Assembly: GCA_964404855.1 (NCBI GenBank)
Contig: CAYOLO010000001.1
Coordinates: 297,322-361,321, forward strand
DNA length: 64,000 nt
Direction: 5' to 3'
Origin: an uncultured Gammaproteobacteria bacterium
Lineage (GTDB): Bacteria > Patescibacteriota > Microgenomatia > CAYQLK01
Below, in pieces: positions 1-59,518 of the stretch (the first letter of the stretch is position 1; the number at the start of each line of letters is the position of its first letter). The translations under genes were made by a program, and so were the position numbers. The notes beneath the pieces are model-generated. The model was not told where the DNA came from, searched no databases, and saw only the letters and a program-made list of their open reading frames with translations.

Positions 1-348
1 ATTGTGTTTGATGATAAAGTCGTTGTTGGTAAGCTTGTTGAGTCTGGTATGGACATTGAAGAACAGAGCCTAAATATTTTTGAAAAAGAAATAAGTTTAG
101 CTAAAGAAATTGTCTGGAATGGCCCTATAGGTAATTTTGAGGATAAAAATTACTCTAATGGTACAAAGCGTTTAGTAGAAATGTTAATGAATTCTTCAGC
201 AAAAATAACACTCGGAGGTGGTGACACGATTAGTGCAATGAACCAGTTTGGGGATACAAAAAAAGTTTATTGGGTATGTCTTGGGGGTGGAGCAATGCTG
301 GATTATATTGCCGGAAAAGAAATGCCGGCAATTGAAGCTTTGAAGTAA
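1..348 (+). CDS. pgk: phosphoglycerate kinase, C-terminal part (5' end lies outside the window)
   Basis: Frame-1 translation shows the PGK C-terminal hallmarks: GGGDT...NGPIG...LGGGAMLDYIAGKEMPAIEAL. Stop TAA at 346-348. Confidence 0.85.
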   Translation: MVFDDKVVVGKLVESGMDIEEQSLNIFEKEISLAKEIVWNGPIGNFEDKNYSNGTKRLVEMLMNSSAKITLGGGDTISAMNQFGDTKKVYWVCLGGGAMLDYIAGKEMPAIEALK

Positions 349-472
349 GTGCTCGCTTCATATAGTGAAGCTACGCCTTCTCGATGAGTAAGTGCTCGCT
401 TCATATAGTGAAGCTACGCCTTCTCGATGAGTAAGTGCTCGCTTCATATAGTGAAGCTACGCCTTCTTTTTT
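345..472 (+). repeat. 43-bp direct tandem repeat x3 (gtaagtgctcgcttcatatagtgaagctacgccttctcgatga). Each unit has a gcttca/tgaagc hairpin, and the last unit ends in a T-run, giving an intrinsic-terminator shape
   Basis: Copies at 345-387 and 388-430, plus a third at 431-~472 that diverges to ccttcttttttaaa. Copy 1 overlaps the pgk stop codon. Confidence 0.85.
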
Positions 473-696
473 AAATTCATAATTTATTTATAGGTTTAAG
501 GTTGAATTCAAAAAATAGTTAGTTTTTTGGTACGATTAGTATGTAGTTAGATATAAGTGTAGCTTTATAAGAGAATAGGCTAAAAATAAGTGCTCGCACA
601 AATTCACTAAATTTATGCTTCCAGCAAAATTTAGTTTCAGTTTGCGCTATGCTTTCTTTTTTTAGCTTTTTCGTATTAAGCTCAAAAGCTAAAAAA

Positions 697-8040: not shown

Positions 8041-8802
8041 TTGTCTTATTTTTTATTTGTAGTTACTCGTAATAAAGTTATCAAATAGTTATCCACAGAA
8101 ACTGATTTTGTTCTTAGAACAAGTTCATACACATATTTTGCCTATCCTAATAGGCTTATATTTTTGTTTGTTATAAATAAAATACTATCGGATATAGGTT
8201 TTTTATGGATAAATAGCTATAGGGCAGTAAATATGTTGACATAAAAATTATAACCGTGTAATATCAAATTACAGACTGAATGACTGTGTAATTTAAATCT
8301 CGTATAGCGTGAAAGAGTTGTTTGACAGTGAATTGTCACTGGCTTCACTCTTTGTCTTTTGGACTTGTTCCAGAAGGGAAGTTTTAGCTTAAAGCTTAGC
8401 AAGGCTTTTGTCCTAAAAAGAGCTTTGTTAGCTTTAAGCCAAGAGATAAGTAGCTCGCACTTTTTATTTTTAATCTTTAAGGCAAACTTTCTTGTTTATC
8501 TGATCTAAGGCAAATTGATTGGTAGGGAACGGAAAGGTTAAAGATTCGAACTAATTAGGTGTAGGGAAAAATAAGCATAAAAAAGAGCATTACTACCGCA
8601 GACTGAATGAACTCGTATAGCAATGCTCTGTGAGGTGTTTTAGGGAAGCGACTTAGGGCAGCTAAGTTGCTTTCCTTGTTTATTAATGTAAATCAGAGTT
8701 CGTATTACTGTCAAGGGGTAAAATAGGTAATTTTTACCTATTTTGAAGCTAAAATCCATTTTTTGAGTAAATATTGTATACATAATATATTGCCCTATAG
8801 TA

Positions 8803-48743: not shown

Positions 48744-49238
48744 ATGGAAAGAACATTAGTACTACTTAAGCCTGACGCAGTTGATCGTGGTTTGGTTGGT
48801 GAGATTTTACAAAGATTTGAAAAAGTCGGACTAAAAATCGCTGGAATGAAACTAATTTGGCCAAAAGAAGATGTGGCAAAAAAACACTACACAGAAGATT
48901 TGGCGGCTAGGCGTGGCGAAAATATTAGGAACATGATGATTGAAATGCTTGTGTCTGGACCAGTGGTAGCCGTTTGTTTGGAAGGTATTGAGGCCGTTGA
49001 ACAGGTTAGGAAAATGGTAGGCTCGACTGAGCCTAAATCCGCCCTGCCTGGCACGATTCGTGGTGATTATGCACATGTTTCTTATAAACATGCGGACGAG
49101 AAAGGTATTGGAATCTTTAACTTAATACATGCTTCAAGCAGTGTTGAAGAAGGGATTACTGAGACTGAGGTGTGGTTTAGTGAAGACGAACTTTGTGACC
49201 ACGAAGCAAGTTATACAAAGCACACAATTAAGTATTAA
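48744..49238 (+). CDS. ndk: nucleoside diphosphate kinase
   Basis: ERTLVLLKPDAV...GLKIAGMK and the NLIHAS active-site region. C-terminal extension. Confidence 0.85.
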   Translation: MERTLVLLKPDAVDRGLVGEILQRFEKVGLKIAGMKLIWPKEDVAKKHYTEDLAARRGENIRNMMIEMLVSGPVVAVCLEGIEAVEQVRKMVGSTEPKSALPGTIRGDYAHVSYKHADEKGIGIFNLIHASSSVEEGITETEVWFSEDELCDHEASYTKHTIKY

Positions 49239-49469
49239 AAATTGAGGCTAAAAATCTATTGACCTGTTAATGTTTAAGTGTTAGAATCGCGTACAGCAAA
49301 ATTAAAGATTAAAGCTTATTTAAACGGGACAGACTAATTTTCGGGGGAAATCCCGTTTTTAGTTGGTTTCCCAATATACTTATTAGCTTAATATTTAGCT
49401 GACTCACAAGATTGCAGGTTGTGTGGGTTGAGACTGAAGGACTATCGCTTGTTAGTTGCGATGATTTTT

Positions 49470-49542
49470 GGGCCGGTAGCTCAGTTGGTAGAGCATCGCA
49501 TTTGCAATGCGAGGGTCAGGAGTTCGAGTCTCCTTCGGTCCA
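49470..49542 (+). tRNA. tRNA-Ala (anticodon UGC), leader of the rRNA unit
   Basis: gggccgg...anticodon loop ttTGCaa...T-arm aggag-ttcgagt-ctcct. G3:U70 pair. Confidence 0.8.
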
Positions 49543-49726
49543 CTGTTTAGACTTTTGAACGGGTATTTTAAAATTAAAATTCCCGTATTTGGGTCTAACC
49601 AAAACAAAAAATTAGGCTTGAACTTTAAAAACTGAATAGAAAATATTTGTCCAAAAATATTTTTGACGAGAAAAACTTTTACAGAAAAGAGAAAAAATTA
49701 GTTCTTTATCTGCGAACAAAAAAGAT

Positions 49727-52622
<2,896 letters not shown>

Positions 52623-52836
52623 GAGTTTTCTTGTTTTTTAAAACAAGATATTTCCAGTCTTTTTTATTCGCAAAAAGAATTTTTCGTTCTTAAGTGTTTA
52701 AAAGGCAAATTAAGTTTTGTGATAAATTTCTTATCTTTAACAATTTATTGTTAAAGGCAGAAATGATTTGCGAAGCAAACATTTCTATTCAGTTTTTAGG
52801 TGTTCAAGCTTTTTTTGTGCTTGAAAGATTACTATT

Positions 52837-53217
52837 ATGGCAAAACCAGAGAGTAAAATATTCGATTTTGATTTAGGTGGTTATTTTGATTTTGGTGCGC
52901 CTGAAATTAAGGGAGAGTTTTCTGAAGATGAGGTTGATTTTTTAGGTGCAGTCTTAAGAGATAGAGTAATGGTTAGAATGCTTGCGAAAAGGGGAATTAA
53001 TGTCCGAGCTGTTTTGAGATACATGCTAAGTGAAGAAGAAATCGTTGGGTTTCTGGAGTCATCTGTGTCAGAAGATGTTATGGCTGAAGTGGCAAAACAT
53101 CTTGATTTTAGAGTGAATACAGCACTTTTGAATGAAAAAATTGAACCTGAGAGTGCAGAAAGGATATTAGCTTTTCGAAATAGCCGACTGCCAGCGTTTA
53201 CTTTGGACCAGTCTTGA
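52837..53217 (+). CDS. hypothetical small acidic protein encoded in the 23S-5S spacer
   Basis: A 126-aa ORF with protein-like composition (MAKPESKIFDFDLGG...). No recognisable family. It lies entirely between the rRNA genes. Confidence 0.35.
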   Translation: MAKPESKIFDFDLGGYFDFGAPEIKGEFSEDEVDFLGAVLRDRVMVRMLAKRGINVRAVLRYMLSEEEIVGFLESSVSEDVMAEVAKHLDFRVNTALLNEKIEPESAERILAFRNSRLPAFTLDQS

Positions 53218-53243
53218 CATTAAGAGTAAATGAAGCTAAAATT

Positions 53244-53360
53244 CTCGAACGGTTGTTGAAGCGGTTTGGTCCCACCTGATCCCATCCCGAACTCAGAAGT
53301 GAAACGAGCCAGCGGTGACAATAGTTATTGCGAAAGCGATTATGAAGATAGCTCGCAGCC
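53244..53360 (+). rRNA. rrf: 5S ribosomal RNA
   Basis: Conserved core ggtcccacctgatcccatcccgaactcagaagtgaaacg. The ends are approximate. Confidence 0.6.
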
Positions 53361-54015
53361 GTATTAAGATTTAGCCATCCCTAAAGGATGGCTATTTTTT
53401 TGTTTGCCCTCTAAAGTGCGTATTCAAATGCTTAGAATTACGCCTTGCGCCTTGAGAACACTCAAGGCTAAAAGGAGGGCTTTTTGTTTTTTGTAGCTGC
53501 GTTTTTGCTCAAAAGATAGTTACTCGCTAGAACTCGTCAAAATTCTGGTTCCACCAAATTTTTCCTTGTTCAAGCTACGTCCTGCGAATCAGGATACCTG
53601 ATTCTAATGCTCGCAGCCGTATTAAAATTTGACCATCCCTAAAGGATGGTCATTTTTTTTGTTATATTTTGCCCTCTAAAGTGCGTATTCAAGTGCTTTG
53701 AATTACGCCTTGCGCCTTGAGAACACTCAAGGCTAAAAGGAGAGCTTTTTCTTTATGTACACCATCTAAAATGCTCGCTCAATCGAGCTTGAGCTACGCT
53801 TTGCGCTTCAAGATTAAAAAATATTTTAATCCTCTCGTTGAGAAGGAAACCTAAAGCTAAAAAGATGGTCATTTTTTTGGTTGTTTTCTGATTAAGGATA
53901 GTTACTCGCCAAAATTCCTCCAAAAACTGTCTCCGTCATTTTTGTCATCAGTTTTGGCTACGTCCTGCGTTTTGGGAAACCCAAAACTTAAAAGGAGGGC
54001 TTTTTGTTTGTTTGC
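53336..54015 (+). repeat. degenerate tandem array of ~150-bp modules, each carrying intrinsic-terminator-like hairpins
   Basis: Two near-identical modules at 53336-53490 and 53607-53760 (gctcgcagccgtattaa..ccatccctaaaggatgg+T-run..gccttgagaacactcaaggc..aaaaggagggcttttt), plus two or more partial copies (53795-53880, 53960-54015). The first module includes the 5S 3' end. Confidence 0.75.
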
Positions 54016-54214
54016 GACCTTCGATGAGGTTTTTTTTTATTGTGTGTCGAGTTACTAAGACGAATCTTGAACACTTTATACCACTTCGCGAGTCAATCGA
54101 CAAATACTGGGATAGAAGTAAGTTCAATTACGCCGTTTTTAGCCAGGCAATCCTAGAAACTAACAACCAATTTCAGTATAATGGAATGTACCGATACTAA
54201 GGGAAATATCGAAA

Positions 54215-54469
54215 GTGCGCCACCTGGCGCAAAATAATAAAGATACTATGAACGCAACAAACGACACGCAAAAACCTACACCTGAAAGCACGAACCCTAT
54301 TAAGCAGGTTGTTGATGTGATGAAAAAGGTCGATACCTCTAGCCCAGAGGCAAAGCAGAACGAAGTAAGCATTACCGACAAAAACGGCAAGCGTATAAAA
54401 CTAGACGACGAAGAAGTGAGATTTAATTATTTTAAGGGAACTTTTGAACGAAAAAGCGGCAAAAAATAG
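54215..54469 (+). CDS. hypothetical small protein (element-borne)
   Basis: 84-aa ORF. No recognisable domain. Confidence 0.35.
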   Translation: MRHLAQNNKDTMNATNDTQKPTPESTNPIKQVVDVMKKVDTSSPEAKQNEVSITDKNGKRIKLDDEEVRFNYFKGTFERKSGKK

Positions 54470-54503
54470 TCTATCTTATTAAGCAAGTCCATGTTGAACA
54501 TAT

Positions 54504-55118
54504 ATGTATGCTATTAACGATAACGAATTTATCGAAAAACACGTAACCGATGCACTCTACAAAAAGATAATCGGTGAACTTCGCACGAATCTCGACGGTA
54601 CAAAGAAAAAAGATAAGGGCAGGAAACGAGAACTAACCCGCGAAATACTACGCCAATATCTTTTTAACCTGTCTCTGACTGGCGAGTACGAATTCTCGGC
54701 TGAATCCGCAGGTTTGCCAGAAAAAAGAAGGCAAAAATACATGACTGAATCAGAGTCATTTCGTGGGGTATCTAGCCTGGCGAAGAATAATGTGTCGCTA
54801 CGGTCAAGAATAGCGGTTGCCCAGGCCATAATGGGACGTAGGCCGAGCTACTATAAACTTACTCACCCAATTACGAACCAGCCTACCTACATAGAGTTAA
54901 AAGAAACTCTGCCGAACGTTAATGCGGCTATGTGGTGGCTGGAAAAAGTAGATAAAATTGGCGCAGTGAAAGAAGACGACGACCCATACAAAAATCCCAA
55001 ACTGGGCGCACCACGAAACGAGCATGAAGCTGAATTGTTAGAAGGACTTTTGAAGAGTCACACGGATTACGAGATAGAAAAGTGGCAAAAAGCGCGACAG
55101 GCGCAACAACAAAAATAA
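54504..55118 (+). CDS. hypothetical protein (element-borne)
   Basis: 204-aa ORF of charged composition. No recognisable motif. Confidence 0.45.
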   Translation: MYAINDNEFIEKHVTDALYKKIIGELRTNLDGTKKKDKGRKRELTREILRQYLFNLSLTGEYEFSAESAGLPEKRRQKYMTESESFRGVSSLAKNNVSLRSRIAVAQAIMGRRPSYYKLTHPITNQPTYIELKETLPNVNAAMWWLEKVDKIGAVKEDDDPYKNPKLGAPRNEHEAELLEGLLKSHTDYEIEKWQKARQAQQQK

Positions 55119-55196
55119 AGCAACAATTGGGCCATAGGTCTTGATAATCTTAGATGGGTTTGGTATATTGATTTTGTTAACTCTAGTTAACTTAAT

Positions 55197-56321
55197 ATGA
55201 CCGACAAAGCCACTTTCAATAAAAACATCTACAAAACTACAGGCGACTTGTTAAGTGTAAAAGAAGCCGCTGATTTACTTGGTACTCACCCGAATACAAT
55301 TCGTAGATGGGCAAAGGATGGGAAAATTAAGTCCACCCGTGTGGGTGCGAGAAAAGACAGGAAATTTAATAAAGATGAACTTCTTAAAGAAGCGTTGAAT
55401 GTCAAAGTCGTGGATGGTAAGCAGGAAGCCTACGAAAAATACTACGATTATCTGAAATCTTTATTCAAAAGAACGATTGAAAAGAACCCCGTAGAGTCCT
55501 TGTATAACACCCTTCAAGTTTCTGGTATGCACTATGGACACTGGGACCCGACTTACGAAATTTACGACTTTTTCGATGACTTTAATAAATTACTCGCCGA
55601 GGAAAGCAAAAAAGACCCATCTTCGAAACGTGTCTACCGCATTGGCCTTTTGATGTATGGCCATGCAATAGAGATGGCTCTACCGTGGAACTTACTTGCC
55701 AACGCTCTGAATATATTGAATGGTCGCCCATATAACGTTAGTCCATTCTTAGACCTTATGAGAAGAAAAAAGGGCTCGTTGTACTCGATACCACCATCCA
55801 CAAAACAAAAGATGGTTAGGGTCAAAGAACTCGCTAGAGAAGCTAAAGAAGAAAAGCTAGTAGAGATTATCGACGAATTTTTCAGTGACGCCGTTCGAAA
55901 TAGTTTTTACCATTCCGACTACTGCCTGACCGATACAGAGTTTCGCTTTTCCGATGGCGGAATCGCTTCTTCAAAGCATTTAGAGGAAATTGACCATCTA
56001 ATAAGTCGCTGTTTTGCTTTTTACGAGGCTTTGCTTAACGCTCATTCGTGGACAAGGGCATTTTATAAAGCCGTAAAGCCCTACCACAAATGGCCAAACT
56101 ACGAGGTATTCGAAATACTAAAGAACGATAAAGAAGTTTATGGCTTCAAGGTTCACTTTTCTAATGGCCAGGTAGCAAAGTTCACGCGCGAACCTGAAAA
56201 GGTAGAGGCCATAAATCTACACTTTGACCATGATGGCAGTATCAACTTTTTTGCGGGCAACCTGGACAAACTAACTAAACAGTGGCTTTTAGACGGCAAG
56301 CCGTTTACAGAGAAACAATAA
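55197..56321 (+). CDS. excisionase/MerR-type HTH DNA-binding protein with a large C-terminal domain of unknown function
   Basis: N-terminal LSVKEAADLLGTHPNTIRRWAKDGKIKSTRVG (HTH_17-like). Confidence 0.55.
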   Translation: MTDKATFNKNIYKTTGDLLSVKEAADLLGTHPNTIRRWAKDGKIKSTRVGARKDRKFNKDELLKEALNVKVVDGKQEAYEKYYDYLKSLFKRTIEKNPVESLYNTLQVSGMHYGHWDPTYEIYDFFDDFNKLLAEESKKDPSSKRVYRIGLLMYGHAIEMALPWNLLANALNILNGRPYNVSPFLDLMRRKKGSLYSIPPSTKQKMVRVKELAREAKEEKLVEIIDEFFSDAVRNSFYHSDYCLTDTEFRFSDGGIASSKHLEEIDHLISRCFAFYEALLNAHSWTRAFYKAVKPYHKWPNYEVFEILKNDKEVYGFKVHFSNGQVAKFTREPEKVEAINLHFDHDGSINFFAGNLDKLTKQWLLDGKPFTEKQ

Positions 56322-56326
56322 CATCT

Positions 56327-57214
56327 ATGAGAAACAGAATTAAGTATTCCCAAAATTTCCTTAAAAGCAGTGATTTAATCGAAAGCCTTTTAGAAAAATC
56401 TTCTATTAGCGCGGACGACGTAGTCATAGAAATAGGTGCAGGTGAAGGCATTATTACCCAAGAACTCGCAAAAAAAGCTAAAAAGGTTATCGCTTTTGAA
56501 ATAGATAATAACTTATCCCAAAAACTTAAAGCCAGGTTCCTAGATAAAGGCCTCGTAGAAATTATTAGTCAAGATTTTCTTCAATTTGAACTACCCAAAA
56601 ATGATTACAAAGTGTTTTCAAACATCCCCTTTAATCTTACGGCCAATATAATCAAGAAGCTCGCCTATGCAAACATTCCACCCATAGATAGCTATTTAAT
56701 TATTCAAAAAGAAGCCGCCCAAAAGTTTGCAGGAAAGCCACTTTCGGCCAACAATAGCCTTGTTTCAGTTTTAATTCAGAGTCATTTTGAAGTTTCCATC
56801 TTCCACCAATTTAGAAAAGATGACTTCTTCCCCAGACCAATGGTGGATACTGTAATGATTAGGTTTCAAAAACTGGATGTAGCGAAAATAAAAGCTAATG
56901 AAAAAGATTTATTTTATGACTTTGTTACATTTGGCTTTAACCAGTTCGAGCCAAACATATTTAAGGGCTTATCTAAGGTTATGAACACCAACGCCATAAA
57001 TGAAGTTGCTAACACCAATCGTTTTTCCGTCACAGTTAAACCAAGTCAACTTAATACAAGCGATTGGGTAGCTTTATTTGAAAAGTTCAACTTAGTAGGC
57101 AACAAATCTAAAGTCTTGGGAAATTACAAACGGTTGTTAGGGCAACAAAGTACGTTAGAAAAAGTAAACCGAACCAGGCTAGATAAAAACTGGAAAAATA
57201 GTGCTTCTAACTAG
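56327..57214 (+). CDS. Erm-family 23S rRNA (adenine-N6)-methyltransferase-like protein (KsgA/Erm fold)
   Basis: KYSQNFL, VIEIGAGEGIIT (SAM-binding), FSNIPFNLTANIIKKL, and FFPRPMVDTVMIRF match ErmB/ErmC block for block. The ATG at 56327 sits 5 nt after the upstream stop. Confidence 0.6.
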   Translation: MRNRIKYSQNFLKSSDLIESLLEKSSISADDVVIEIGAGEGIITQELAKKAKKVIAFEIDNNLSQKLKARFLDKGLVEIISQDFLQFELPKNDYKVFSNIPFNLTANIIKKLAYANIPPIDSYLIIQKEAAQKFAGKPLSANNSLVSVLIQSHFEVSIFHQFRKDDFFPRPMVDTVMIRFQKLDVAKIKANEKDLFYDFVTFGFNQFEPNIFKGLSKVMNTNAINEVANTNRFSVTVKPSQLNTSDWVALFEKFNLVGNKSKVLGNYKRLLGQQSTLEKVNRTRLDKNWKNSASN

Positions 57215-57223
57215 AGTAAAACT

Positions 57224-58834
57224 ATGTATGACGAAGAAAACCAAGTCGATATTAAATCGCTAAAATATGTTCTATACGCTCGTAAATCAACCGACGACCC
57301 ACAAAGGCAGTTGCGTTCAATCCCTGACCAAATAGACGAATGTAAAAAGCTAGCCGAACGACTTGAACTAAACGTAGTCGAAGTTTTAGAAGAAAAGAAA
57401 TCAGCAAAAATACCCAGACGAAGACCAGTCTTTGATTCGATGATGGAAGCAATCGGCAAGGGTCAATACGACGCGATACTGGCCTGGCATCCCGACAGAT
57501 TAGCTCGTAACGCCCTTGAAGCTGGCGTCCTAATCGAAATGGTGGACGAAGGAATAATTCAGGACTTAAAATTCGTTACCCACCACTTTAGCCCAGACGC
57601 TAATGGCAAAATGCTTCTGGGAATGGCCTTTGTACTGTCTAAGCAATACAGCGATAAACTTTCCCAGGATGTTACCAGGGGCGTTAGAAGACGCCATAGA
57701 GAAGGTATAACACCTGCCTTTAAGCATGGTTACCTTCGAGACGAAAATGGTATCTATAGACCCGATGGTGAAAAGTTCGACTTAATAAAACAAGGCTGGA
57801 TTATGCGCGCCGATGGAGAATCCTTAGAGGACATCGCGAAATATCTTAATGATAATAATTACTTCCGACTTATTATCGGTGAGAAAAGTAAAAACTATCT
57901 GGGGAAGCAGTACATGACTACCCAGAAGTTAAGTAACATATTCAAAGACCCTTTTTACTTTGGTTTGTTGGTGCAAGTAAAGCAAGAAGTAGATTTATGC
58001 GAAATGCACGAGGATTTCGTGGCAATGGTAAGCCGAGATTTATACGATAAGGTACAAGCGTTGACATTAAATCGGCCAAATCCCTATAAAACCAAGCACC
58101 CAAACTTTTATCCCTTAAAACAAATGATTGATTGCGCCTATTGCGGGGGCAACATGGTCGTAGGCCCGTCTAGTGGTCGTAAAGAAAACTATTTGTATTA
58201 CCGATGCGATACCGCTTCTTGCGCTAGAAATACGCTTGAAAACAAATCTAAACGCCCAAGCGACCCTACAAAAATTAAGGTGTCAATTCGAGCAAAGATA
58301 ATCTTTGACTTTATTTACGACTTCTTGAAGGACGGCCTCGGTTTAACAGAAAAGGAATACAAAGAATACTATCAAGGACTTAAAGCCCTGGGTGATAACG
58401 AGCTTCAAAAGATACGAGCGCAGATAGCAAGCTATCAAGGACAGCGACGCCATTTACAGTCCGAGGTTAGAAGAATTGCCCTTAGCTTGCCAAGAATCAG
58501 AGATGACGAGACGGTTTACCAAATCAATAAAGAAGAACTTGAAAAGGATAAACGCGACCTTAGCCAAGTGGAGACTAATATCGAAAAGTTAAAGGCGAAA
58601 CTTGTTGATAAAGACGATGACGAACTGTCCCTAGAAGAATTCTTGAACATATCAAAAAATGCAGGTAAGAAGGTCAAAGCTGGCGATGCAATCGTAAAAG
58701 ATACAATTTGCCGAATAATCTTCTTGAACATAGCCGTCGACAACGAAAAAGTGACGTCGTATCGGCTAAAAGAACCCTTCGCTACCCTGCTAAAAAGCAG
58801 GTCTTCCCAAAATGGTCGGGGTGGTCGGATTTGA
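57224..58834 (+). CDS. large serine recombinase (resolvase-type catalytic domain + recombinase/zinc-ribbon/coiled-coil C-terminus)
   Basis: YARKSTDDPQRQ...SIPDQ catalytic Ser region, DRLARN, C-terminal CxxC...C cluster (CAYCGG...CDTASC) and coiled-coil. The last 22 nt are tRNA-Pro sequence. Confidence 0.8.
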   Translation: MYDEENQVDIKSLKYVLYARKSTDDPQRQLRSIPDQIDECKKLAERLELNVVEVLEEKKSAKIPRRRPVFDSMMEAIGKGQYDAILAWHPDRLARNALEAGVLIEMVDEGIIQDLKFVTHHFSPDANGKMLLGMAFVLSKQYSDKLSQDVTRGVRRRHREGITPAFKHGYLRDENGIYRPDGEKFDLIKQGWIMRADGESLEDIAKYLNDNNYFRLIIGEKSKNYLGKQYMTTQKLSNIFKDPFYFGLLVQVKQEVDLCEMHEDFVAMVSRDLYDKVQALTLNRPNPYKTKHPNFYPLKQMIDCAYCGGNMVVGPSSGRKENYLYYRCDTASCARNTLENKSKRPSDPTKIKVSIRAKIIFDFIYDFLKDGLGLTEKEYKEYYQGLKALGDNELQKIRAQIASYQGQRRHLQSEVRRIALSLPRIRDDETVYQINKEELEKDKRDLSQVETNIEKLKAKLVDKDDDELSLEEFLNISKNAGKKVKAGDAIVKDTICRIIFLNIAVDNEKVTSYRLKEPFATLLKSRSSQNGRGGRI

Positions 58835-58888
58835 ACCGACGGCCTCGCCGTCCCGAACGACGCGCTCTACCAGCTGAGCTACACCCCG
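58813..58888 (-). tRNA. tRNA-Pro (anticodon CGG), CCA encoded
   Basis: Minus-strand cloverleaf: cggggtg-ta-gctc-agctggta-gagc-g-cgtcg-ttCGGga-cggcg-aggcc-gtcgg-ttcaaat-ccgac-caccccg-a-cca. Confidence 0.8.
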
Positions 58889-59013
58889 TCGTCGAAATGA
58901 GCTACATCGTTGCGAATTGAGACGACATTCAATTATATGTCTCAATTCTTACATTTTTCGCTATTTCTCCTCTCCCCATTTTGTAAACAAAACGGGGGCC
59001 CCGTTTTTTAAGG

Positions 59014-59105: not shown

Positions 59106-59348
59106 AAAGAATAAGAGAGCTTGACCATAATTTTGTTTGAAACAGGAAACAGGGGGTATTGTGACCATTTTGAGGCTAAAAATCAACCGTTTTTATACAC
59201 ATGGCCTGTAATAATTGTGGATTAATCGTATTTTACTATCCCATAGTAAGTTGTTATCGATATAAAGTAAAATTTAAGGTAAAATATTGAGGCTGAAACG
59301 GCATATTTAATCGAAAATCGGCTGTTTGTGATTTTGAGTGGTAGCTTT

Positions 59349-59367
59349 GCCCTTGTAGCTCAGTGGA
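59349..59367 (+). pseudogene. truncated duplicate of the tRNA-Arg 5' end (19 nt: gcccttgtagctcagtgga)
   Basis: Identical to the first 19 nt of the intact tRNA-Arg 83 bp downstream. Confidence 0.6.
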
Positions 59368-59431: not shown

Positions 59432-59504
59432 GCCCTTGTAGCTCAGTGGATAGAGCGCGCCCGTCCTAAGGGTGGTGTCGGGAGTTCGATTCTCTCCAAG
59501 GGCA
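59432..59504 (+). tRNA. tRNA-Arg (anticodon CCU)
   Basis: gcccttg-ta-gctc-agtggata-gagc-g-cgccc-gtCCTaa-gggtg-gtgtc-gggag-ttcgatt-ctctc-caagggc-a. Confidence 0.75.
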
Positions 59505-59518
59505 CACATAATTATGTG

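Follow-up and report, generated by a model that had tools for sequence, protein, structure and literature searches.

Background

Bacterial rRNA operons end in tandem Rho-independent terminators, e.g., rrnB T1/T2 of Escherichia coli, and several families of short repeats are known from intergenic regions. The mycobacterial MIRU/variable-number tandem repeats (VNTR) are direct tandem intergenic units of 46–100 bp that follow the orientation of operons and overlap stop and start codons; BOX of Streptococcus pneumoniae, ERIC, Correia/NEMIS and RPE are modular intergenic repeats; the RAYT-associated REP/BIME are imperfect palindromes of 20–40 nucleotides (nt) with a conserved 5' tetranucleotide, often alternating in orientation and present in hundreds of copies; and PATEs, derived from IS200/IS605, have subterminal hairpins that a cognate Y1 TnpA recognizes and insert 3' of a fixed tetra- or pentanucleotide. 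Here we analyse a repeat array located between the 5S rRNA gene and the convergent tRNA-Pro(CGG) gene in a stretch of 64,000 nt, hereafter the window (positions 297,322–361,321 of contig CAYOLO010000001.1, assembly GCA_964404855.1; all positions below are those of the window unless preceded by the label of another locus, such as L001). The 680 nt that separate the 5S gene from an integrated element (53365–54044) are probably a host chromosomal spacer leading from 5S to tRNA-Pro rather than the scar of a mobile element. Apart from terminators, the spacer contains copies of a module of about 94 nt that has a defined anatomy with covarying helices, is dispersed to other loci and genomes, is polymorphic among strains and is independent of the adjacent recombinase element. 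In its behaviour, the locus resembles an rRNA terminator region on which an interspersed intergenic repeat comparable to MIRU, BOX or REP is superimposed.

As in rrnB T1/T2-type regions, a GC-rich hairpin with a T-run directly follows the 5S gene, a second terminator comes next, and the hairpin is maintained by compensatory changes. Here, however, only two canonical terminators are present alongside split and half sites, a different repeat of dispersed distribution takes up most of the 680 nt, 5S is apparently transcribed from a promoter of its own, and a protein-coding open reading frame (ORF) lies between the 23S and 5S genes. The similarity to MIRU consists in direct tandem intergenic units of about 40–95 nt with ends at stop and start regions and strain-variable content, but there is no sequence similarity and no conserved ORF, the helices covary, and the host is of the Patescibacteria type. 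With BOX-type repeats the module shares conserved end boxes around a variable middle, a predicted stable structure and dispersed intergenic copies; its ends, however, are not complementary, its sequence differs, and its density is apparently low (two loci in 64 kb). Short motifs preceding hairpins (CGTAGC on the minus strand of the module), location at gene 3' ends or between convergent genes, and pairing that is Watson-Crick only recall REP and PATE, whereas a length of about 94 nt, two unlike helices, a head-to-tail arrangement and the absence of RAYT or TnpA genes seen near the copies set the module apart from REP/BIME. Finally, as in attachment-site (att) duplications at tRNA genes, a second copy of the 3' end of a stable-RNA gene lies downstream, within an integration hot spot, but the repeat encloses no element, and the resident element uses the CCA end of tRNA-Pro, not the 5S end.

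Organization of the spacer

The spacer comprises two A+B units of about 140 nt, five copies of the module (two full, three reduced) and two strong intrinsic terminators, together with terminators that are split or halved, arranged as a mosaic in the order A+B, C1, A+B, X with half of A, C2 with half of B, and a short tail that reaches 54044 (Table 1). A reading of the window from the sequence alone had described at least four degenerate copies of a module of about 150 bp. The repeats lie where that reading placed them and are far beyond chance: 53351–53489 and 53609–53754 are 88% identical over 146 nt (E 1e-41), 53512–53598 and 53894–53981 are 70% identical (E 1e-8), 53439–53492 and 53959–54012 are 76% identical, and the motif TACGYYYTGCG occurs five times in the array compared to 0.07 expected for the whole window. 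However, the supposed period of 150 bp does not exist, and Tandem Repeats Finder detected no regular array in 52500–55000. A BLAST search with the array repeats found no further copies elsewhere in the 64-kb window.

Both A+B units, which are 88% identical, start with the 3'-terminal 14 nt of the 5S gene; the inclusion of the 5S 3' end in the first unit had been recognized correctly, and the same 14 nt recur 258 nt downstream. The junction CTAA-T-GCTCGCAGCC at 53604–53618 parallels the junction CTAA-TG-TTACTCGC that is common to the tandem arrays of modules at the loci L069, L074 and L075. Given that CTAA-T-GCTCGC (53604–53614) mirrors these tandem junctions, the apparent copy of the 5S 3' end at 53609 would be the 5' box of a duplicated unit and not an att site. 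A degenerate remnant of a box is present between T_B1/B1 and module C1. Neither the empty site of L006 nor the other element copies include the tail, which probably belongs to the host because it resembles the L006 junction (a T-run and CTTGT followed by TGGTCGG).

Anatomy and covariation of the module

An alignment of 16 full copies drawn from the window, sister strains and five unrelated metagenome contigs is nearly gapless, the copies being 91–95 nt long and all but one 93–95 nt. From 5' to 3', the module consists of a 5' box, (A)TAG-TTA/GTG-CTCGC; the 5' arm of helix P1 (8 bp); an interior; the 3' arm of P1; a box (G/A)CTACGTCCTGCG; helix P2; and a terminal (G/A)CTAA. The box between P1 and P2 is GCTACGTCCTGCG, and P2 is a 7-bp hairpin with an AAA or ATA loop. 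The interior comes in four sequence types and usually includes an A-run, a small hairpin with a TCC loop and a T-run. The 3' end of the 5S gene, ATAGCTCGC, resembles the 5' box, ATAGTTACTCGC.

Among the 16 copies, P1 is 86.7% paired with both sides changed in six of the eight pairs, and P2 is 95.5% paired with both sides changed in six of the seven; the inner helix P3 is weak (63% paired) and is missing from reduced copies. The covariation score of 0.382 was reached by none of 500 shuffles (0.165 +/- 0.019), and slid partners scored 0.06–0.18. Minimum-free-energy folds of single sequences yield P1/P3 together with P2, with z-scores from -3.3 to -4.4. G-T pairs occupy 3 of the 128 cells of P1 and none of the 112 cells of P2, and A-C pairs are found 8 times in P1 and twice in P2. 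With pairing that is almost purely Watson-Crick, the helices would form on either strand or in DNA, so that the strand cannot be assigned. In L001, P2 of module X is uninterrupted (CTTTAGG-AAA-CCTAAAG), and L069:1011–1138 has a similar form with a long P2.

In the frame beginning at TAG in the 5' box, 11 of the 16 copies have no stop over about 30 codons (LLAK...YVLR.RKP..), and the tandem junction CTAATGTTACTCGC creates an in-frame ATG. Coding is nevertheless unlikely because stops interrupt this frame in the other 5 copies and changes in the helices are compensatory rather than synonymous. Neither sequence homology, which is not to be expected, nor a conserved in-frame ORF links the module to MIRU. 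A small ORF that follows an AAGGAGG motif was rejected given that, by eye, its peptides are not conserved between copies, and visual inspection revealed no convincing promoter inside the module.

Searches with R1, the covariance model of the module, gave no matches in loci of more distant Patescibacteria (a subset of L017–L052). In Rfam 15, only 5S exceeded the threshold, with other matches at E up to 10 falling far below their gathering scores; a blastn search of the array against plasmids and phages gave no match, a pattern scan of viral contigs gave 0 matches, and a literature search retrieved nothing relevant to the module. The module is a previously undescribed, lineage-specific repeat of narrow distribution that is new to the libraries searched.

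Terminators

The canonical terminator of the array is ccatccctaaaggatgg (CCATCC-CTAAA-GGATGG) followed by a T-run. It is present in two copies only, T_A1 and T_A2 (53630–53660; dG -16.3 kcal/mol, z -5.3 like that of T_A1), both of which were found by the terminator scan and combine a GC-rich stem-loop with a T-run. The sequence-only reading had assigned two or three hairpins with T-runs to each module. This description fits ccatccctaaaggatgg but not the other two sequences: gccttgagaacactcaaggc is the module hairpin P2, which has no T-run and so is not a terminator, and aaaaggagggcttttt is not itself a hairpin but the 3' arm and T-run of the long-range stem GCCCTCT...GGAGGGC. In T_B1, this stem encloses a reduced module, producing a three-way junction with two inner hairpins; in sister strains, the position of T_B1 in unit 1 is occupied by the uninterrupted hairpin GCCCTCCCTAAAGGAGGGC with T5.

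The first hairpin starts 7 nt past the 5S end, a position that is kept in all strain types, with stems that differ by compensatory changes, namely GCCATCC/GGATGGC in the window and L004 (CTAAA loop, T7) and GCCCTCC/GGAGGGC in L001 and L006 (CTAAA loop, T5). The hairpin of unit 2 in L006 is AGCTCTCC-CTAA-AGGAGAGCT, with the compensatory stem variant AGCTCTCC/GGAGAGCT. The hairpins that follow 5S form a single family (GCCNTCC-CTAAA-GGANGGC and a T-run) with compensatory stems at a fixed position. Because the 5S gene has its own promoter-like site, the T_A hairpin is predicted to be its natural, working terminator. T_A might also be bidirectional: T_A2 (53630–53652) is called on the minus strand as well, and both T_A copies lie between A-rich and T-rich runs.

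Strain variation and the neighbouring integrative element

Database look-ups with a near-identical variant of the 126-aa ORF located between the 23S and 5S genes identified ten sister-strain loci. The comparison of related genomes that the sequence-only reading had proposed reveals homologous loci that differ in both copy number and content, with four versions of the array (the window, L001, the L004 type and the L006 type); in this respect, the array shows the tandem variation of MIRU-like VNTR. Given that independent assemblies (L001, L004–L013) reproduce the array, it is real; the concern that homologous loci might carry a single copy and that the repeats might be an assembly artefact is thereby removed. 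L006, L007 and L008 are free of the element, and in these strains the equivalent of 53870–54008 is followed two bases later by tRNA-Pro (58813 onward in the window). The L004 type has a single A+B unit; between it and tRNA-Pro lies an orphan gene on the minus strand. This gene (L004:10716–11420, minus strand; also in L005, L009 and L010) encodes a 234-aa protein without Pfam or NCBIfam matches and takes the place of the distal array. In the same four strains, genes for giant proteins of 3266–3857 aa, some with the SH3_3 domain, lie downstream of tRNA-Arg, where the window has a sortase gene. The 5S–tRNA-Pro–tRNA-Arg neighbourhood is a variable hot spot.

The element encompasses five genes: two small ORFs and the genes for an excisionase-like helix-turn-helix protein, an rRNA methyltransferase similar to Erm, and a large serine recombinase (57224–58834), the ORF of which ends inside the tRNA-Pro gene. 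Pfam recognizes the helix-turn-helix protein, an rRNA adenine methyltransferase and the recombinase. The Erm-like methyltransferase scores just below the cutoffs of both NF000499 (210.6 bits vs 212) and the KsgA model (170.9 vs 171). Its gene could be a mobile one of the macrolide-resistance type in a Patescibacteria lineage. Copies of the element are integrated at tRNA-Pro(GGG) in L062 and L063, tRNA-Pro(TGG) in L064–L067 and tRNA-Pro(CGG) in the window. All of them begin with TGTCGAGTT (54045) on the left and finish with TCTTCCCAAAA (58812) on the right, after which comes TGGTCGG, the complement of the tRNA 3' end; the junctions would fit a TG core that corresponds to the CA of the tRNA CCA end. 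The left flanks of the copies in L062–L067 are unrelated and contain no array. Because empty sites carry the array and other copies of the element lack it, the array pre-dates the element and is unrelated to its recombination.

Module copies at other loci and in other genomes

A search for the module elsewhere, also envisaged by the sequence-only reading, yielded a further copy in the window (585–692), which brings the number of module loci in the 64 kb to two, and additional loci in other genomes. This copy belongs to the pgk–gap spacer, which also contains the three 43-nt mini-modules (Tandem Repeats Finder: 344–467, period 43, 2.9 copies, 100% match). Most contigs of short-read assemblies from related samples break within these 43-nt repeats, and the spacer of L082 is of the same length, with no copy-number variation seen in the 43-nt array. 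Such breaks of short-read assemblies at repeats help explain why rRNA-proximal regions are poorly recovered in genomes of this kind.

In L004, L006, L014, L070 and L076, the intergenic region separating ndk from an MGMT-like gene contains a module; this site has none in the window and in L016, and the module is rearranged in L015. There (L015:3660–3842), the module stops after GCTACA, and the Shine-Dalgarno/start region (AAATAATATAAGGAGAAACAAAAAAT) is duplicated on either side of a second mini-module, an arrangement that suggests a slippage-type rearrangement. When metagenome contigs were scanned with a degenerate pattern, 14 loci were obtained, 9 of which contain true copies. Tandem head-to-tail arrays were found in L074 and L075, with two copies each, and in L069, where two arrays together comprise about five copies; L080 has three dispersed copies. 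Most copies have the same direction as the upstream gene. The 5' box is often on or next to the upstream stop codon (TAA of pgk, TAG of the MGMT-like gene), and the CTAA end with an A-run adjoins the Shine-Dalgarno sequence or the start codon of ndk and gap. In L072, the copy lies antisense to the FKBP and PHP genes that flank it, and array 2 of L069 is antisense to its neighbours.

Interpretation and alternative explanations

The most plausible explanation is that the spacer would be built of Rho-independent terminators of one hairpin family and copies of the interspersed module. The first terminator would end 5S transcription and shield the facing tRNA gene, and the modules would follow each other head to tail, some of them lying within terminator hairpins or abutting them. 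The array would then have been remodelled into one version per strain type by local duplication and deletion and by recombination between shared boxes, presumably through slippage or unequal recombination. No promoter-like site is present on the plus strand within the array, so the downstream modules are probably little transcribed at this locus, where the distal modules would add little beyond back-up hairpins. The proposal that the array is a multi-terminator insulator of the rRNA operon survives in part: T_A lies 7 nt past 5S, its position and compensatory stem are kept, and it faces tRNA-Pro, but the canonical terminators number only two. Several points weigh against this explanation. The generic terminator scan of 52500–54700 identified 4 sites, which is not a significant excess over the expected 2.0 +/- 1.3; termination at T_A and the silence of the distal modules are predictions from sequence; copies of the module were counted within 64 kb of a genome of about 0.66 Mb; the likeness of the 5S 3' end to the 5' box is left without an explanation; and the uniform architecture with strong covariation suggests that the module has a function of its own.

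The latter observation is at the heart of the idea that the module is a functional structured RNA, either a cis element located at the ends of genes or between cistrons (e.g., one that stabilises 3' ends or serves processing or insulation) or a small RNA gene, with the array being a multi-copy RNA locus. Uniform length, the covariation of P1 and P2, the low z-scores of the folds (-3.3 to -4.4), the orientation of most copies along the upstream gene with ends at stop codons and Shine-Dalgarno/start regions, and the retention of the module in a genome of about 0.7 Mb are all compatible with such a role. Nevertheless, we consider it unlikely: A-C mismatches are at least as frequent as G-T pairs in helices that are otherwise nearly pure Watson-Crick, which is atypical of RNA; the L072 copy and array 2 of L069 are antisense to their neighbours; all modules of the window array lie behind a strong terminator, with no plus-strand promoter-like site in the array; and the interiors are highly variable, with P3 lost from reduced copies. 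The same pairing pattern fits DNA hairpins and, together with the spread of copies over loci and genomes in both orientations relative to genes, is compatible with a non-autonomous mobile DNA moved in trans (a REP/PATE-like or other single-strand unit) that would insert by TAA/TAG-like sites and its own CTAA end and so produce tandems. The ndk-upstream site is filled in L004, L006 and L014 but empty in the window and L016, the T_B hairpin includes a reduced module in some strains but not in others, and the 5' box contains TTAC, the target tetranucleotide of IS608. However, the filled and empty ndk-upstream sites do not differ by a clean insertion. The hallmarks of miniature inverted-repeat transposable elements are lacking: the 5' end of the consensus and the reverse complement of its 3' end agree in only 3 of 20 positions, so there are no terminal inverted repeats, and the flanks of 21 copies show no consistent target-site duplication. 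Nor does the module, with only two loci in 64 kb, match REP/BIME in length, helices or arrangement, and no transposase was seen beside any copy in a screen of the window that was not exhaustive. Mobility of this type therefore seems to us slightly less probable still than an RNA function.

A footprint of repeated integration and excision, as put forward in the sequence-only reading, or att-proximal duplicates left by earlier elements that targeted the 5S 3' end, would account for the recurrence of the last 14 nt of 5S 258 nt downstream and for the three states of the hot spot (empty, with the orphan gene, or with the serine-recombinase element). Yet the array abuts tRNA-Pro in the element-free L006–L008 and is absent beside the element copies at tRNA-Pro(GGG) and tRNA-Pro(TGG), only terminators and one module separate the two copies of the 5S end, and the same modules occur at loci without a recombinase (pgk–gap, ndk-upstream and other contigs). 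Furthermore, strand exchange by serine recombinases takes place within a 2-bp core and leaves the flanking sequence unduplicated. This explanation is highly improbable, and with the attachment site at the tRNA-Pro CCA end and the array in the host spacer, the view of the locus as a mobile-element scar is replaced. Equally hard to credit is a tandem of decayed 5S pseudogenes, notwithstanding the duplicated 5S 3' end and a weak by-eye likeness between TGGTTCCACC and TGGTCCCACC. Local alignments of the 5S body to pieces of the array are no better than those of shuffles, and the Rfam 5S model has no second, even partial, match at E up to 10, so decayed 5S copies are not supported; modules are also found far from any 5S gene.

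A bolder reading, which we regard as doubtful if worth stating, is that the module represents a new class of structured elements of one clade of Patescibacteria, either an RNA that would act in cis to mark or insulate the ends of genes, the 3' end of 5S being a natural 5' box, or a DNA mobilised in single-stranded form under the guidance of its hairpins, without terminal inverted repeats or target-site duplications; the 5S array would be its largest cluster. A covarying repeat family in a genome of about 0.7 Mb, with little room for junk, is of interest in itself, and if functional, as RNA or as mobile DNA, the module would be among the few structured non-coding families known from candidate-phyla-radiation bacteria. 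The variability of the array from strain to strain could serve as a typing marker.

Genomic setting and minor observations

The promoter-like site upstream of 5S ends 6 nt before the 5' end of the gene, and a promoter at this position would start transcripts at approximately that end. Since the 5S gene behind the 126-aa ORF has this site, 5S may be transcribed apart from 23S. The ORF (52837–53217, plus strand) has no Pfam or NCBIfam match, and more than 15 independent assemblies carry it in identical or nearly identical form. In 48744–49728, ndk is located directly upstream of tRNA-Ala(TGC)–23S, and the window contains no 16S gene; the rRNA genes thus appear to be unlinked.

Table 1. Coordinates of the repeats, terminators and neighbouring genes in the window
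Feature	Position	Strand	Description
Tandem mini-modules	344–467	+	Three perfect 43-nt copies: GTGCTCGC, hairpin TTCA..TGAA, GCTACGCC; start at pgk stop codon
Module copy (gamma interior)	585–692	+	pgk–gap spacer; R1 39 bits, E ~1e-7; ends CTAAAAAAATG at gap start codon
tRNA-Ala(TGC)	49470–49543		Rfam/ARAGORN
23S rRNA	49729–52624		Rfam/ARAGORN
Promoter-like site	53214–53242	+	TTGACA-17-TAAAAT; 11/12 consensus matches; putative function
5S rRNA gene	53248–53364	+	Rfam RF00001, 69.2 bits; last 14 nt, GCTCGCAGCCGTAT
Terminator T_A1	53372–53401	+	Hairpin TAGCCATCC-CTAAA-GGATGGCTA, then T7; dG -16.5 kcal/mol, z -5.3
T_B1	53406–53486	+	Long-range stem GCCCTCT (53406–53412)/GGAGGGC (53474–53480), then T5; dG -33 kcal/mol, z -4.8
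Reduced module B1	53412–53471	+	R1 23.9 bits, E 1e-5 (local search); short P1, no interior, P2 CCTTGAG-AACA-CTCAAGG
Full module C1 (beta interior)	53515–53607	+	R1 94.1 bits; P1 GCTAGAAC/GTTCAAGC, P2 AATCAGG-ATA-CCTGATT
Second A+B unit	53609–53754	+	Copy of 5S 3' end (53609–53622), T_A2 (hairpin 53630–53652 and T8), T_B2 enclosing B2 (53677–53736)
Reduced module B2	53663–53736	+	R1 27.3 bits; no interior; inside T_B2
Module X (reduced)	53766–53860	+	R1 24 bits; no interior; minimal P1 GCTCAA/TTGAGC; P2 with 34-nt two-hairpin insertion
Half terminator (A)	53860–53878	+	3' arm of A hairpin and T7 only (AAAAGATGGTCATTTTTTT); 84% identical to 53641–53671
Full module C2 (alpha interior)	53897–53990	+	R1 96.7 bits; P1 GCCAAAA/TTTTGGC, P2 TTTTGGG-AAA-CCCAAAA
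Half terminator (B)	53990–54006	+	3' arm of B stem and T5 only (AAAAGGAGGGCTTTTTG)
Spacer tail	54012–54044	+	TTGCG, weak hairpin ACCT..AGGT, T9, ATTGTG; probably the last host sequence before the element
Serine-recombinase integrative element	54045–58812	+	4.8 kb; 89–92% nucleotide identity to copies at other tRNA-Pro genes; Pfam/NCBIfam
tRNA-Pro(CGG)	58813–58888	-	Convergent with 5S; CCA end is the attachment site of the element

A scan of genome contigs anchored on ndk detected the ndk–tRNA-Ala–23S synteny only in the closest relatives, L014–L016, the contigs of which end within 23S and thus provide no further 5S arrays. By NDK protein identity, the closest relatives in the genome collection are metagenome-assembled genomes; those with 70–75% identity are labelled Saccharibacteria, Kerfeldbacteria or, inconsistently, uncultured Gammaproteobacteria (L018). 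The GC skew is strongly positive over the window and flat at about 53000–59000.

Beyond the element, a duplicated fragment of the 5' part of tRNA-Arg(CCT) at 59334–59367 (plus strand) lies some 85 nt upstream of the complete gene (59432–59505), and strains of the L004 type have a single copy. At the other end of the window, a degenerate remnant of the module (8058–8150, plus strand) with the 5' box TAGTTACTCG scores only 12.5 bits with R1; it comes after the end of a gene, the terminator GCCTATCCTAATAGGC with a T-run follows it, and a lone GTAGCTCGC box is present nearby at 8448–8460 (plus strand). In L080 (2320–2409), just past the modules at the contig end, two copies of a different direct repeat, TTGACTTACRCGGAGYGAAGTCAAT, surround a palindrome.

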